DNA of 64,000 bases from an uncultured Prevotella sp. (GTDB lineage: Bacteria; Bacteroidota; Bacteroidia; Bacteroidales; Bacteroidaceae), in contig OMZM01000011.1 of assembly GCA_900315545.1 (NCBI GenBank), positions 11,760-75,759 of the forward strand, read 5' to 3'. Shown here piece after piece: positions 3,648 through 63,252 of the stretch. Position numbers and translations under genes: made by a program. Within the stretch, counting starts at the first letter, position 1. Every line of letters begins with the position of its first letter. The notes under the pieces are model-generated. The model saw only the letters and a list, made by a program, of their open reading frames with translations. It ran no database searches and was not told the origin of the DNA.

Positions 3648-4097
3648 CTCACTACAAAAACCGTGCCAAACTCGACGGAATTTTCTTTCGCGACGAAAAA
3701 TGATGAATAATTTTGACACAGAAAAACTCTCCAAATAGAATCGGAACAGCCCCTGAAACTGCAAAATTCTGTTAAATTACGGGTCGGCGATAACTGTTAA
3801 AATTGTCAAAGAGTATCTTTGACGCGCCTGTTTCGTCTATTTTGCCCTGCAAAACACAGTGCCCGACACCCCCAAACACTATGTCTGACATCCTCAAAGA
3901 GTGTGTTTGACAATCTCAAACATGCTCTTTGACATTTTTAACACTTCTATTTCCTGCACAGAAACACCATATTGCAGTTAACAAACTGACTGTCAAGAGA
4001 TTGCAGCTGCATGCGAATTTTGGGCGTATTTTGCCCCTCAGATTTCGGAAACGACTTTCGCGGGCATTCTCGCGACAGTAAACGACCCGAAATTGAT
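3648..4097 (+). repeat. Dispersed intergenic repeat family A, copy 1 (~450 bp)
   Basis: Homologous to 31544-31995 (-), 39528-39925 (+) and 62841-63252 (-). Shared ends CTCAC..CAAAAACCGTGCCAAA and TCGCGGGCATTCTCGCGACAGTAAAC..AATTGAT; internal TCAAA-N7-TTTGA array. Confidence 0.92.
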
Positions 4098-4516
4098 AAA
4101 AAAAATACTTATAGATAATTAAATCTTAAATTGAATTAAAATATAAAACATTATATTATTTATACATAATAGTTTATTATCTTTGCAAATAAATTTAGAC
4201 TCTGTAAAGTCCAAAATAAATGTAAAACTCATTGTGAAAAAAGGCAAGGACAACCTTCAGAGCCACAATGAATAAAAATGTTAGAGAAATAGTATAATAT
4301 TATTAATTTAGACATCCTTGACTAAACTGAAAAAGCAGAATTAGCACTTCAGAAAAATATCAGTTCAGCTAAGACAATGGATACCTACGCTTTAATAATG
4401 GGCGTGGATAAAAATGTTGTTGACTGATATGGGCAGTGCTAAGCCTTGCTTATCAACCACTTTCCACGCCCTATTTCATTAACAAAAAGGGGCTTTTGGC
4501 TTACTATATTACAAAT

Positions 4517-19138: not shown

Positions 19139-19254
19139 TTACAGGATTTGGATAAATCTTCTGTAATCCTTTTACAAGTATGCTGTAACAGCGTTACAGA
19201 CTATTCGTCACGCTGTTACGGAGTATCTGTCACGACATTACAAGCCGTTTGTAA
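19139..19254. repeat. Dispersed intergenic repeat family B, copy 1: phased TTACA-N7-TGT(A/C)A array
   Basis: Units start at 19150, 19172, 19194, 19216 and 19238 (exact 22-bp period); homologous to 49353-49468. Confidence 0.88.
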
Positions 19255-19441
19255 TTTCGCACCCGCCGTTGCAACTCGCGATGAAAAACAAGTATTAAGA
19301 CATTGGAAACTGTCATCATAGCCTCTGAAAAAAACCTATTTCGTTGAAAATCATAATTTTATTTGGTCGTTTGAAAGAAAAAACATACCTTTGCAAAGCT
19401 ATGTGCACATAACCGAAATTATTAATTTAAAACTTATTTTT

Positions 19442-31461: not shown

Positions 31462-31543
31462 AAGTTTTAAAATCTTCAACTATGAGAATCACGAAAGGCT
31501 TGCCTGTAGAAGGTAGGCCTTTCTAATTTTGCGGCAAATGGTT

Positions 31544-31995
31544 AATCAATTATTGCCCGTTTAGTGTCGCGAGAATGCACGCGAAACCCGTTTCGGAAAT
31601 CTGAGGGGCAAAATATGCCCGTATTTCGCGTGCATCTGCAATCGCCTGACAGTCAGTTTGTTATCTGCAAACATGGTGTTTCTGTGCAGGAAACAGAAGT
31701 GTTAAAATTGTCAAAGAGCATGTTTGAGATTGTCAAACACACTGTTTGAGGATGTCAGACATAGTGTTTGGGGGTGTCGGACGCTATGACTGACAGGGCA
31801 AAACAGGCGAAATAGAAGCCTCAAAGATGCTCTTTGACATTTTTAACAGTTGTCGCCGAGCGTGGAATTAACACATTTTTGCAGTTTCAGGGGCTAAAAC
31901 TTTTCTATTTGGAGAGTTTTTCTGTGTCAAAAATTTTCATACTTTTTCGGGTCGGAGGAAAATCCTGATGAGTTTGGCACGGTTTTTGCTGTGAG
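31544..31995 (-). repeat. Dispersed intergenic repeat family A, copy 2
   Basis: Reverse-complement homolog of 3648-4097. Confidence 0.92.
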
Positions 31996-34396: not shown

Positions 34397-35284
34397 CTAT
34401 GAATTAACCTTCTCAGCCTTACGCAAATGGCTGACAAACATATCCTGTATCTCGGCTATCTGTCCCAGTCCTTCCATGTTTACCGACACTTTCAGACCCT
34501 CTTTCTCAAGCTCTCCCTTCCATTCCACCGATATATCGTTGGCTGCATGGTCGCCCGCAACAAACATCATCGGCACAAGTACGACACTGCGCGCCTTCGA
34601 TTGCTTCAGCTTTCTGACCACATCGCCGAAAGCAGGATAGCCCTCTATCGTTCCGACATGATAGTTTCCACAGCCTTTGGCAGCCAGCATATAGTCCAAC
34701 ATGCCATATACCGCCGTGTCGATGGTTTCCGTTCCATGACCGACAAACACTACATGCTCGCCTTTCTTGCCGTTGGCAACATTGCGCCTGGTCAGTATGT
34801 CAGCCACCTTTCCTACTTCCTCAGCATCGCATAACAATGGCTTGCCAACGCGAATGTCATCGAAAAACGGCGCCATAGAGCGCATTTCCGACAGCAGCAT
34901 ATTGTATTCTATTCCACAAATGACATTAGTGCTCTGCACGACGACCCTCGTATAGCCCTCACTGCGCAGGCTCATCAGCGCCTCAACGGGCGTCTGCCTG
35001 ACTATGCCGCGCTCCTTCAGGCGCTTGATAATAATGCGCGACGTGTAAGCCTCACGCACCTCGACACCCGGATAGCAGCCCTTCACCTTCTCGTTGATGG
35101 CATCTATCGTCAAGGCGCGCGTCCCGTCGTAGGTAGTACCGAAGTGAACCATCAGCACGGCAACACTCTTTCCGTTCTCCGAACCTGCCGACAACATGCT
35201 CTCAACACTCTCCGTCTTCTGCGCAAAGCCTGCCGTAGAAAGCACCAGAAGACACAACAAAATCAGATTTCTCATACCTTTCAT
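34397..35284 (-). CDS. cbiK: Sirohydrochlorin cobaltochelatase CbiK family protein with Sec signal peptide
   Basis: LMVHFGTT, REAYTSRII and both metal-ligand His motifs (FVGHGT, MFVAGDHA); N-terminus MKGMRNLILLCLLVLSTAGFA-Q looks like a cleavable signal peptide. Confidence 0.88.
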   Translation of the reverse strand: MKGMRNLILLCLLVLSTAGFAQKTESVESMLSAGSENGKSVAVLMVHFGTTYDGTRALTIDAINEKVKGCYPGVEVREAYTSRIIIKRLKERGIVRQTPVEALMSLRSEGYTRVVVQSTNVICGIEYNMLLSEMRSMAPFFDDIRVGKPLLCDAEEVGKVADILTRRNVANGKKGEHVVFVGHGTETIDTAVYGMLDYMLAAKGCGNYHVGTIEGYPAFGDVVRKLKQSKARSVVLVPMMFVAGDHAANDISVEWKGELEKEGLKVSVNMEGLGQIAEIQDMFVSHLRKAEKVNS

Positions 35285-35388
35285 AACATAATATTTATAT
35301 TTATATAACATTAATAATACACTTTCATAACATTATTGATACACTTTCATAACACTAATAATATGCTTTCATAACATTATTGATACGC
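35279..35388. repeat. Five tandem 22-bp AT-rich repeats at the cbiK start
   Basis: Units at 35279, 35301, 35323, 35345 and 35367, consensus TTTCATAACATTA(T/A)T(G/A)ATAC(A/G)C. Confidence 0.85.
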
Positions 35389-35514
35389 TCTAAAAACGTC
35401 GGCAAAGGTATCTCAAATAATGATTTTCGACAATTTTTCGCTCAATAATACTGCATGAGAGTGAAAAATTTTTGCTTTTTTATTGCAGATTAAAGTTTTT
35501 TATATACTTTTGCA

Positions 35515-35676
35515 GCGGATTTTGGTAACCAAAGCATGCATGCTTGGTTTTAAAAGGGAATTAGGTGCAAAGCCTAAACAGTGCCCGCTACTGTGATATC
35601 CATTATGTTAAACTCAAATAAACCACTGTCATTTACGGGAAGGTGAGTTTATCGGATTAAGTCAGGAGACCTGCCT
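35515..35676 (+). ncRNA. Cobalamin riboswitch
   Basis: Diagnostic segments AAAAGGGAA-TTAGGTGCAAAGCCTAA-ACAGTGCCCGCTACTGT, CCACTG...GGGAAGG and AAGTCAGGAGACCTGCC, between a TACTTTTG promoter box and the TonB receptor gene. Confidence 0.93.
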
Positions 35677-35743
35677 CTATTCCATAAAGGGTAAAAATCT
35701 CTTCGGGGTCAAGGAGATAATTTTATTAACTAACTATATTTTT

Positions 35744-47957: not shown

Positions 47958-48998
47958 ATGAAGAACCATCTGCTCATCATGCGCTTTTCGGCATTAGGCG
48001 ATGTAGCCATGACCGTGCCTGTGGTATGGTCGCTGGCAAAACAGTATCCAGACCTGAGGATTACCGTCCTGAGCAGAGGCTTTGCACGCACGCTGTTCGA
48101 CGGTCTGGCGACAAATGTCAGCTTCATGGAGGCAGATTTCAAGCATGAAAACAAGGGCATACACGGGCTGAACGTGCTGTTCAGACGCTTGAAAGCCAAG
48201 AATTTCACTCATGTTGCCGACCTGCACGACGTGCTGCGCTCGAAATACCTGCGCATGCGCTTCGACCTGTCGATGACGAGAGTGGAACACATAGACAAGC
48301 ACCGACGCGAACGCAGGAAACTGACGGCACAGTCGGACAAAAGGATTCTAAAGCCCATACCTACTGCCTTCAGCAACTATGCACAGGTGTTTGAGAAACT
48401 TGGCTATCCCGTGAACATTGATTTCAGCAGCATTTTCGCCGACAGCGATAGCATTTTCTCACTGCTGCCTGAGCCGCTCGGAAGGAAAGGCGAGGGCGAA
48501 CGCTGGGTTGGCATCGCGCCGTTTGCCGCACACATGGGCAAGATGCTGCCGACAGAGAAGGTGGAAAAGATAGTGGAACGCCTGTGCAGTCGCGCCGACA
48601 CGAGGGTGATGGTGTTCTGCGGAGGACAGGAAGAGCGCAAGACTGCCGACCGATGGAGCAGCCAATGGCAGAACTGCACAAACGCATCGGCACTCGTCAC
48701 GTCGCTGAAGCAGGAGATTGCCATCATGAGCCAGCTGAACGTCATGCTGTCGATGGACAGTGCCAACATGCATCTGGCTTCGCTTGCAGGCACGCCGGTG
48801 GTCAGCGTGTGGGGCGCAACCCATCCGTTTGCAGGATTCATGGGCTGGAACCAGAAAGCCGACGATGCCGTACAAAGAGACATGCCGTGCCGTCCGTGCT
48901 CCATTTTTGGCAACAAGCCGTGCCTCAGGGGCGACTATGCGTGCCTCAGTGACATTGACGGGGAAACTATTATACGGAATATAGAAAATTATTTATAA
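47958..48998 (+). CDS. Glycosyltransferase family 9 (heptosyltransferase-like)
   Basis: RFSALGDVAM, DLH, MDSANMHLA and SVWGATHP motifs. Confidence 0.9.
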   Translation: MKNHLLIMRFSALGDVAMTVPVVWSLAKQYPDLRITVLSRGFARTLFDGLATNVSFMEADFKHENKGIHGLNVLFRRLKAKNFTHVADLHDVLRSKYLRMRFDLSMTRVEHIDKHRRERRKLTAQSDKRILKPIPTAFSNYAQVFEKLGYPVNIDFSSIFADSDSIFSLLPEPLGRKGEGERWVGIAPFAAHMGKMLPTEKVEKIVERLCSRADTRVMVFCGGQEERKTADRWSSQWQNCTNASALVTSLKQEIAIMSQLNVMLSMDSANMHLASLAGTPVVSVWGATHPFAGFMGWNQKADDAVQRDMPCRPCSIFGNKPCLRGDYACLSDIDGETIIRNIENYL

Positions 48999-49032: not shown

Positions 49033-49197
49033 ATGAAAAAGTATGTTTGCGACGTATGCGGGTATGTTTACGACCCGGCAGTAGGCGACCCCGATGGCGG
49101 TATCGCCGCAGGAACAGCATTTGAGGACATCCCTTCTGACTGGGTATGCCCACTGTGCGGTGTAGGCAAGGATGATTTCTCGCCTGTAGAGGAATAA
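49033..49197 (+). CDS. Rubredoxin (54 aa; below the ORF-track cutoff)
   Basis: Manual translation [54 protein letters not shown], with two CxxCG motifs. Confidence 0.96.
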
Positions 49198-49219: not shown

Positions 49220-49252
49220 ATGAAGGCATCCTTTTCGGGATGCCTTTATTAT
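49220..49252 (+). terminator. Terminator after rubredoxin
   Basis: AAGGCATCC-TTTTC-GGGATGCCTTT followed by ATTATT. Confidence 0.7.
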
Positions 49253-49352: not shown

Positions 49353-49468
49353 TTACAGGATTTCTACAACAATTCTGTAATGCTTTTACAAATAGCCTGT
49401 AAAAGCATTACAAACACTCTGTCACGGTGTTACGGAATACTTGTCACGCTTTTACAAACAACTTGTAA
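49353..49468. repeat. Dispersed intergenic repeat family B, copy 2
   Basis: Units at 49364, 49386, 49408, 49430 and 49452 (exact 22-bp period), with the same half-site order as the copy at 19139. Confidence 0.88.
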
Positions 49469-49477
49469 TTTCTTCGT

Positions 49478-62702: not shown

Positions 62703-62840
62703 GGTGTGTGTTGTTTGTAATAATACATTACTTGACAAAGATACGATTATGTTGGGAATTGACAAAATTATTTCAGGAAAATCGGATGCAAGTATTTAAA
62801 AATTTGATGTGAAACGGCTCTTGCGTGCCGGAAAAATACT

Positions 62841-63252
62841 AATCAATTTTCGCCCGTTTACTGTCGCGAGAATGCCCGCGAAACCCGTTTCCGAAATCTG
62901 AGGGGCAAAATACGCCCAAAATTCCTGCAAATATAAGCCTTTTATGCAGGAAATTCAAGTGTTAAAAATGTCAAAGAGCATGTTTGAGATTGTCAAACAG
63001 TGTGTTTGAGGCTGCCAAACATAGTGTTTGGGGCTTTCAGACACAATATTTCGCAAGCCAAAATACACAAATAAGCGCCTCAAACATGCTCTTTGACATT
63101 TTTAACACTTATCGCCGACCTCGAAATTAACACAAATTAGCATTTTCAGAGGCTGTAAAAATTCTATTTGGAGACTTTTCCTCTGTCAAAATTTTTCATC
63201 ATTTTTCGGCTCGGATGAAAATCCTGAAGAGTTTGGCACGGTTTTTGCAGGG
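62841..63252 (-). repeat. Dispersed intergenic repeat family A, copy 4
   Basis: Reverse-complement homolog of copy 1; array units at 62971, 62993, 63015, 63037, ~63058 and 63080. Confidence 0.92.

Follow-up and report, generated by a model that had tools for sequence, protein, structure and literature searches.

Dispersed intergenic repeats are common in bacteria, and for most of them the function and the means of spread are unknown. Here we describe family B, an element of ~120 bp built from palindromic units on a 22-bp period, two copies of which lie in a stretch of 64,000 nucleotides (hereafter the window) from an uncultured Prevotella sp. (GenBank assembly GCA_900315545.1, contig OMZM01000011.1). 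The window is C14:11760-75759 of genome G000, which comprises 2.29 Mb in 56 contigs at 46% G+C, in an assembly that is 92% complete. Throughout this genome, family B and a larger family, A, form one series of elements that keep apart from one another over kilobases.

Several described systems resemble family B in part. BIME/REP elements are extragenic mosaics of palindromic units in alternating orientation, joined by linkers of two alternating lengths; a few units make up ~100–150 bp, and the mosaics occupy tens to hundreds of loci, often after the 3′ ends of genes. The host proteins gyrase, IHF, and Pol I bind them. Family B is similar in architecture and placement, but the REP unit spans ~35 nt, has a GTAG head, and is tied to the RAYT (Y1) transposase, whereas the unit here measures 17–19 nt on a rigid 22-bp period and shows neither feature. 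We know of no report of regular kilobase-scale spacing for BIMEs.

The nearest described analogue is BrickBuilt of Porphyromonas gingivalis, a MITE (miniature inverted-repeat transposable element) with 23-nt tandem direct repeats in 1–22.8 copies, and with a leader and a tail of up to ~300 nt that carry IS5-like terminal inverted repeats (GAGACCTTTGCA) (Klein et al. 2015, PMC4596501). Like family B, BrickBuilt is found in Bacteroidales, is strictly intergenic and lineage-restricted, has no Rfam match, occurs in ~20–35 copies, and is modular, combining a leader, short dyad-symmetric tandem units of ~22–23 nt without spacers, and a tail. Compared by description, however, family B is distinguished by a period of 22 bp only, 3–5 units, a leader of 33 bp, and the absence of insertion sequence (IS)-like or GAGACC-type ends from the aligned copies. 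PINSR, of the P. intermedia group, is a 188-bp repeat of ~180 copies per genome, most of whose sites are conserved between strains and whose function is unknown (2016, PMC4755523). Both PINSR and family B are specific to a Prevotella lineage, non-coding, intergenic, and, apart from the 6-bp outermost arm pair of family B, without terminal inverted repeats, and the copy number of PINSR is of the same order as the 186 A and B elements counted below. By description alone, the two differ in that no phased palindrome array has been described, and no spacing analysis published, for PINSR.

BOX elements of Streptococcus pneumoniae (boxA-boxB(n)-boxC) occur in ~100 or more intergenic copies and have no known transposase. 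Their repeated middle module recalls family A, in which an exchangeable 22-bp-phased array lies between a left and a right module; boxB, however, is 45 bp long and not a phased palindrome, BOX sequences are unrelated and belong to another phylum, and no even spacing has been reported for them. At the ends of Mu and Tn7, several protein sites of ~22 bp stand in a row, and a resident copy bars insertions within kilobases, which would give the exclusion zone observed here and, at saturation, parking-type spacing. Those sites, however, occupy both ends of a large autonomous element whose genes encode an rve transposase together with its AAA+ partner; neither was found here. Their known immunity is specific to one transposase and their sites are oriented, in contrast to the cross-class exclusion and the palindromes of the present arrays. 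Plasmid iterons and parC/ParR-type centromeres are likewise rows of short repeats, phased at about one or two turns of the helix, on which a cooperative array of protein forms along one face of the DNA, but they occur once per replicon beside the gene for the binding protein, whereas the present arrays occupy 35–186 chromosomal loci with no associated gene.

Family B fits the general description of BIME/REP, BrickBuilt, PINSR, and BOX elements in being modular, intergenic, palindromic, and lineage-restricted, but lacks defining features of MITEs (a target-site duplication and a cognate IS), of REP elements (a RAYT and the GTAG head), and of BrickBuilt (a 23-nt period, a variable number of units, and IS5-like ends). 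A literature search for TTACA/TGTAA arrays in Bacteroidales returned nothing. To our knowledge, a kilobase-scale exclusion that crosses families and ends in an even tiling of the chromosome has not been described for any of these four systems.

Family B arrays are strictly phased

The two copies in the window and their surroundings are as follows.

19139-19258, + strand: family B copy 1, with a leader (19139-19171) that includes a degenerate first unit, followed by four 22-bp-phased units
19172-19188, 19194-19210, 19216-19232, and 19238-19254, + strand: palindromic cores of the copy 1 units
Neighbours of copy 1: the polA stop (19095), 44 bp before the element, and the next + strand gene (ATG 19443), 184 bp after it
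49353-49472, + strand: family B copy 2, with its leader at 49353-49385
49386-49402, 49408-49424, 49430-49446, and 49452-49468, + strand: palindromic cores of the copy 2 units
Neighbours of copy 2: the rubredoxin gene (49033-49197) on one side and, 5 bp away on the other, the stop (49478) of a minus-strand P-type ATPase gene

The original prediction, made from the sequence of the window, had described two repeats with a common start, an identical order of arm variants, and divergent spacers. All three observations were correct: both copies begin with TTACAGGATTT and align without gaps over 120 bp, their arm variants follow the same order (TGTAA, TGTAA, YGTCA, TTACG..TGTCA, TTACA..TGTAA), and most spacer bases differ between them. 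The pattern TTACA-N7-TGTMA matched nine times in the window, every time within the two elements, against 0.32 matches expected from shuffled sequence. Two details required revision. Four of the five units proposed were recovered as such, and the supposed first unit is a degenerate copy of the family leader (TTACAGGAT plus TTTTACAAGNATCTTGTAATCC). Likewise, the pentamer arms were too short, as the palindromic half-site in the family logo extends to GTTACARR, followed by 3 nt and the mirror image.

A profile built from the two window copies retrieved 35 loci in the 2.29-Mb genome, so that the search for further copies suggested at the outset was amply answered. Twenty-six of these stand alone, and nine serve as the core of a ~446-bp family A scaffold. 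All 35 copies are intergenic, and the element contains no open reading frame (ORF). A typical copy consists of TTACAGGAT, a first unit TTTTACAAGNATCTTGTAATCC, three or four more units, and the end ...CTGTAATTT; the leader measures 33 bp and the number of units per array is nearly fixed (3–5, mostly 4–5).

The register of the arrays is strict. Among the arrays of the genome, 61 intervals measured 22 bp and 15 measured 44 bp, while none had any other length. In arm-agnostic scans, periods of 19–21 or 23–25 bp gave only 0–2 chance matches, compared with 54 arrays at 22 bp in the second species described below. Each unit reads yGTTACARR, three central bases, and the mirror YYTGTAAC, and three linker bases separate one unit from the next; the arms thus alternate between GTTACA and TGTAAC with N7 and N5 between them. 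Over 104 unit slots, taken unfiltered from the first to the last unit that could be recognised in each stand-alone copy, the seven positions of the core arm were 99.5% identical, whereas the commonest base at spacer and linker positions reached a frequency of only 0.37–0.42, which is near random. The arms and the 22-bp period are also the same in other Prevotella species, where the spacers are quite different. In that the half-sites and their phasing are what is conserved, the original proposal is supported. Because 22 bp corresponds to about two helical turns, the half-sites all lie on one face of the duplex. The pattern matches the expectation for a multi-site, one-face platform for a protein, whose binding we infer from the sequence.

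Families A and B form one evenly spaced series

Family A was found by extending around one B copy and proved much more abundant, with ~160 copies genome-wide, nine composites with family B included. Its ~446 bp comprise a 170-bp left module (GCAAAAAGTGTGCCAAAC...), a core that in most copies is an array of TCAAA-N7-TTTGA on the 22-bp period, and an 85-bp right module (AAATACTCGCGTATTTGCC...GATTAT). The window contains four family A elements.

3655-4098, no strand assigned: family A, 15.5 kb upstream of copy 1; the phased-array scan scored no core array here
31543-31988, no strand assigned: family A with a scored TCAAA-type core array, in the slot after copy 1 (12.4 kb)
39533-39927, no strand assigned: family A, 8.0 kb past the previous slot and 9.8 kb ahead of copy 2
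62840-63247, no strand assigned: family A, in the slot following copy 2 (13.5 kb)

An arm-agnostic scan of the genome found just two arm classes of 5-N7-5 arrays on a 22-bp period, TTACA and TCAAA. The units of the two families have in common an 8-N3-8 layout and the bases G-T-.-A-.-A. At nine loci, a family B array substitutes for the TCAAA core of the A scaffold (listed examples are C26: 17131, 63488, and 100822, and C15: 9096 and 16703). These composites are young, being 87–99% identical to one another, compared with 60–77% among the stand-alone B copies, which are old, and a median of 75% among A copies. Their closest relatives lie on the same contig: three young composites on C26 are mutual closest relatives, and one pair separated by 84 kb reaches 99% identity. 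Judged by these identities, a chimeric element seems to have expanded locally in recent times. Several contigs start or end inside a family A element, and the elements therefore probably cause assembly breaks. The arrays are also of practical use as a marker, and are likely to break contigs when Prevotella metagenomes are assembled.

We analysed the spacing of 186 elements, namely 160 of A type and the 26 stand-alone B copies. Within contigs, the mean interval was 11.9 kb, with a coefficient of variation (CV) of 0.34. The shortest interval was 3,975 bp, and only 1 of 134 intervals fell below 5 kb, compared with ~57 expected from random intergenic placement. When the A elements were held fixed and the B copies were randomised, the CV was 0.61 ± 0.03, and none of 2000 trials gave a value as low as the observed 0.34. 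No stand-alone B copy lay less than 5.9 kb from its nearest A element, and the eight gaps longer than 25 kb that were seen with A elements alone were reduced to one once B copies were counted. B copies therefore occupy slots of one common A/B series, which in the window runs A 3655, B 19139, A 31543, A 39533, B 49353, A 62840.

This series was reproduced by a parking model, in which elements were placed sequentially at random on the intergenic sites actually present, each excluding others over 8.5 kb ± 15% (Kolmogorov–Smirnov test, P = 0.23). The model yielded 209 elements with a mean interval of 11.4 kb, against 186 elements and 11.9 kb in the genome, and also matched the shape of the distribution, with its sharp lower edge, mode at 8–10 kb, and right tail. 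Exclusion over kilobases by a resident array is thus seen as a pattern, between the A and B classes and in two species (see below), rather than as a mechanism. Deletion by homologous recombination between close copies was considered as its main cause and rejected: stand-alone B and A elements share no homology and yet avoid each other, which recombinational deletion cannot account for. In addition, 17 of 119 full-length A copies had their best genome-wide match in the adjacent A element (~1 expected). This likeness of neighbours suggests that copying or gene conversion acts locally.

Taken together, we tentatively favour, at a little less than an even chance, the view that the arrays are multi-site protein platforms of a non-autonomous repeat that is copied locally under an immunity-like exclusion. 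The 4–5 palindromic sites GTTACARR-N3-YYTGTAAC, set 22 bp apart, would seat several dimers of one sequence-specific DNA-binding protein, which would belong to a mobile-element system. The arrays would have multiplied through copying into nearby intergenic sites, and a resident array, whether of the TTACA or the TCAAA class, would block another within about 6–8 kb, much as in transposition target immunity. In this rumen species, the process may have reached saturation and so given rise to the even spacing of ~12 kb. Protein binding, transposition-like spread, and target-immunity-like exclusion are the parts of this account that we infer. The structure and phasing of the repeat, its conserved arms with decayed spacers, the lack of covariation, its intergenic and Prevotella-restricted distribution, its fixation, the exclusion between arm classes in two species, the agreement with the parking model, and the likeness of neighbouring A copies are observations.

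The same spacing could also result from host selection, an explanation that we regard as serious although on balance unlikely. The arrays would then be architectural elements that are bound or wrapped by a protein of the chromosome, for example by gyrase, which acts in this way at E. coli BIME-2, or else by a nucleoid-associated or a clamp-loading protein, and selection would retain one platform per ~10–12 kb for topological or looping domains; arm classes would be interchangeable, so that no close accumulation would occur. Consistent with this, the exclusion between A and B is independent of homology beyond the short arms, a B array is able to replace the A core in the same scaffold, and the arms are 99.5% intact even though the stand-alone B copies are only 60–77% alike overall. 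The element length of ~120 bp is also close to that of the DNA stretch wrapped by gyrase. The right-skewed intervals with a sharp lower edge, however, fit random parking better than optimised spacing, and the unusual likeness of neighbouring A copies also speaks against host selection. The quantitative pattern found here turns the question of repeat function into testable alternatives, namely self-avoidance of a mobile element versus selected spacing of platforms. If one protein binds the arrays, it could open a way into how chromosome domains are organised, or into a new form of transposition control, in Prevotella, a dominant genus of the gut and rumen.

Arrays recur in other Prevotella genomes, and their exclusion zone in a second species

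Sampling of the genus Prevotella revealed TTACA-type arrays in 22 of 401 genomes, while a reversed control pattern gave none. When all GTDB species representatives were scanned, the matches lay almost only in Prevotella, with a few in other Bacteroidales; they included many metagenome-assembled genomes from the rumen, Prevotella sp. KH2C16, and Prevotella sp. oral taxon 376 F0043. A relaxed arm pattern raised the count to 42 of 401 well-assembled Prevotella genomes, compared with two single loci in 400 genomes from 236 other Bacteroidales genera. Arrays of equal geometry are thus present in about 5–10% of Prevotella species, and most carriers have a few dozen copies with a mean spacing of 30–80 kb. 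The reversed pattern ANTKT-N7-AMANT at 22 bp gave 10–79 matches in some Prevotella genomes (G869, G813, G016, G283, and G313), which indicates that more arm classes of the same geometry exist and that the 10% prevalence is a lower bound.

To see the arrangement at lower density, the whole 2.07-Mb scaffold of oral taxon 376 F0043 (G413:C1), scanned arm-agnostically, is informative. It carries 54 arrays, all with a period of 22, of which 38 have TTACA arms and 16 have other arms. The minimum distance between arrays of any class was 5.8 kb (P = 1e-4 under uniform placement), and intervals of 5.5–12.5 kb were enriched (15 versus 7.7 expected, P = 0.005), forming local trains. The exclusion zone, and a tendency for new copies to fall just outside it, are thus reproduced in a second species at a density that is not saturating. 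A second arm class of this species, TAAAAGG-N3-CCTTTTA, also has a 22-bp period and occurs alongside the TTACA arrays (for example, at G413:C1 28094-28154).

A more general proposal, which we consider possible but rather doubtful, is that Prevotella harbours a self-spacing class of 22-bp-phased arrays, in which any resident array, of whatever arm class, holds others off by at least ~6 kb and new ones arise just outside that distance. At saturation, as in the rumen species studied here, the chromosome would be tiled with one platform per ~12 kb. If true, this would represent either transposition immunity of a new, family-crossing form, carried by very small non-autonomous elements, or a hitherto unknown system that partitions the chromosome by means of domesticated repeats.

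These distributions bear on both explanations of the spacing. The cross-class exclusion seen again in the second species is what selection for host platforms would lead one to expect. A general organiser of the chromosome, however, should be more widespread and more evenly placed than arrays that occur in about 5–10% of Prevotella species and mostly at 30–80 kb, and the local trains in the sparse genome of oral taxon 376 speak against it as well. The patchy species distribution is typical of selfish repeats and was counted in favour of a mobile element.

Family B copies are fixed at the three loci examined

The rubredoxin protein beside copy 2 had exact matches in hundreds of metagenome assemblies (531 blocks). 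Judged by these matches, the species is abundant in metagenomes. Copy 2 was present at the identical site in all 10 metagenome strains or contigs read, and two other B loci, in strains reached through exact-protein look-up, were occupied in every case (3/3 and 8/8). A close sister of the species is missing from the databases: once self matches were set aside, the best homologues of a flanking protein were at most 66% identical, and the polA DNA of relatives was ~70% identical. The figure of at most 66% comes from the protein collection and was obtained with a housekeeping glycosyltransferase (noted at window 47958-48995).

The three B copies together showed five single-nucleotide polymorphisms (SNPs), one of them in an arm, and one spacer flip in about 350 nt. 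The flip is located as follows.

49391-49397, + strand: N7 spacer within the second unit of copy 2; the window and nine strains have AATAGCC, and strain L030 has GGCTATT, the exact reverse complement

The flip in one strain indicates that the inverted arms occasionally interact in vivo. A difference of similar form was seen outside the array, in the terminator hairpin of the rubredoxin gene (49225-49250): its loop, 49232-49237, reads TTTTCG in the window and two strains and the reverse complement CGAAAA in eight, which amounts to a small inversion between the stem arms.

Fixation of copies at the same sites in every strain examined is a further point for host selection. The SNP density of the three B copies was not below that of the flanking intergenic DNA, which tells against it, although the SNPs were few and the power low, so that these data provide no evidence either way on constraint in situ. 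Overall, selected host platforms account more naturally than a mobile element for the cross-class exclusion and the intact arms, and fit less well with the patchy distribution, the local trains, the parking-shaped intervals, and the likeness of neighbours.

Within the family, constraint acts on arm sequence rather than on base pairing

Placement just downstream of a gene 3′ end, noted originally for the two window copies (44 and 5 bp from stop codons), is true of both, but family-wide it is only a tendency. The 26 stand-alone copies lie between convergent genes in 8 cases, between tandem genes in 12 (9 nearer to the 3′ end), between divergent genes in 5, and at a contig end in 1. Convergent regions are enriched, at 8 of 25 copies compared with 14% among all intergenic regions. 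In the tandem contexts, the element was co-directional with the upstream gene 8 times and opposite 4 times.

These positions had given rise to the suggestion that the palindromes fold as RNA in 3′ untranslated regions. In its broader form, namely that they act in transcripts as a terminator, a 3′-end stabiliser, or a small RNA, we consider this explanation very improbable. It draws on the many copies that lie 5–90 bp from a stop codon and on the over-representation of convergent regions, and the strands do fold strongly: single strands of the element have a marked hairpin potential (z about −5.5 relative to shuffled sequence). BrickBuilt, moreover, has transcription and promoter activity (PMC4596501). 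However, the elements take either orientation relative to the upstream gene, and five copies lie between divergent genes. No Rfam family matched at the gathering threshold, with only noise at E ≤ 10, and no intrinsic terminator (a GC-rich stem followed by a T-run) was found inside copy 1; the rubredoxin gene keeps its own terminator hairpin, at ~49225-49250, upstream of copy 2. Covariation, as described below, is absent, and a role in RNA would leave both the 22-bp phasing and the kilobase-scale exclusion unexplained. The suggestion of RNA folding was thus not sustained.

Pairing was examined directly at the mirrored positions of the spacers. They showed a symmetric preference (RR...YY) without covariation; the pair (7,13), for instance, had 51 Watson–Crick combinations against 49 expected. 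For position pairs between units, Watson–Crick counts were at or below expectation. Furthermore, the recurrent arm variant GTCAC faces GTTAC and produces a T.C mismatch that has been inherited rather than compensated. The lack of covariation and this uncompensated mismatch indicate that, within the family, the constraint is on sequence and not on pairing.

Arms nevertheless remain complementary between families and species while their sequence changes (TTACA/TGTAA, TCAAA/TTTGA, TAAAA/TTTTA, and TGAAA/TTTCA). This would fit a symmetric dimer whose specificity evolves together with that of its site, and it would also fit if a fold were required. The latter would hold if the elements were recognised by structure as single strands, which we judge improbable, albeit less so than a role in RNA. 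In that case, the arms would form short hairpins on single-stranded DNA during replication, and an HUH/tyrosine enzyme would read the fold, in the manner of REP/REPIN-RAYT, IS200/IS605, or attC. Besides the persistent complementarity, the folding far better than shuffled sequence agrees with such recognition, as does the spacer flip, which implies at least occasional pairing or template switching of the arms in vivo; the absence of a target-site duplication is likewise a property of IS200/IS605 and REP elements. On the other hand, covariation within the family is lacking at mirrored positions outside the 5-nt arms, the frequent GTCAC/GTTAC pairing keeps its conserved mismatch, and the REP hallmark, a GTAG head, is absent. 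No Y1 transposase was found in G000, and in other array-bearing genomes its presence was inconsistent and the gene was not flanked by arrays. Independent hairpins would also give no obvious sense to a strict 22-nt period, which equals two duplex turns. The rigid period argues for duplex DNA and a protein array.

In each of the two window copies, one unit is flanked by perfectly complementary linkers, which extends the stem to 12–15 bp. Complementarity of successive linkers was considered as a family trait and rejected, since perfect complementarity is confined to the two window copies (p = 0.12).

Search for a partner protein or gene

The following results all weigh against the favoured reading, in which a protein-bound, non-autonomous repeat spreads by local copying. 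None of the three B loci checked showed insertion polymorphism, so mobility would have to be deduced and was not observed. A partner protein was not found in the 92%-complete assembly, which does not prove its absence. Only two transposase genes were detected, one for an IS30-type rve protein of 324 aa and one for a DDE_Tnp_1 protein of 414 aa; neither lies near an array.

C35:69581-69844 (L147) of G000: transposase gene
C10:578-1252 (L148) of G000: transposase gene

Transposases of the Mu, Tn7, or IS21 type were absent from the assembly, and the sole rve gene has no adjacent ATPase. The Y1/RAYT transposase (PF01797) was also absent from G000, in a search in which controls gave matches; it occurred in 2 of 5 other array-bearing genomes, and the gene in oral taxon 376 (G413, 1900156-1900497) is not flanked by arrays. 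When ORFs around 114 loci from many species were clustered, no gene family recurred beside the arrays, and viral contigs (IMG/VR) contained no arrays at all. In the 15 copies with canonical ends, no direct repeat of 2–5 bp exceeded the shuffled expectation at any offset, and the sole terminal inverted repeat is the 6-bp TTACAG...CTGTAA, that is, the outermost arm pair. Finally, target immunity as known acts for one transposase only. For the exclusion observed here to cross arm sequences, a single protein would have to recognise half-sites loosely (T-N-A-M-A), or a factor acting downstream would have to be shared. The likeness of neighbours could also stem from gene conversion.

Three known kinds of element were considered and rejected as an identity for the arrays. 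The size and copy number would suit a classical MITE (shorter than ~600 bp and non-coding), but no target-site duplication was found and the ends do not appear IS-like; no IS with TTACAG/CTGTAA ends was found. The alternating palindromic units would suit a RAYT/REP system, but the Y1 transposase is missing from G000 and erratic elsewhere, and the logo has no GT(A/G)G head. A phage origin was rejected on the basis of the IMG/VR result.

Another 22-bp repeat in the window

A further array with a 22-bp period lies in the window at 35279-35388. It is made of direct repeats (CTTTCATAACATTATTGATACN) and is not of the 5-N7-5 palindrome type. The array is located directly upstream of a cobalamin riboswitch at 35506-35692 (Rfam RF00174, 99.5 bits).

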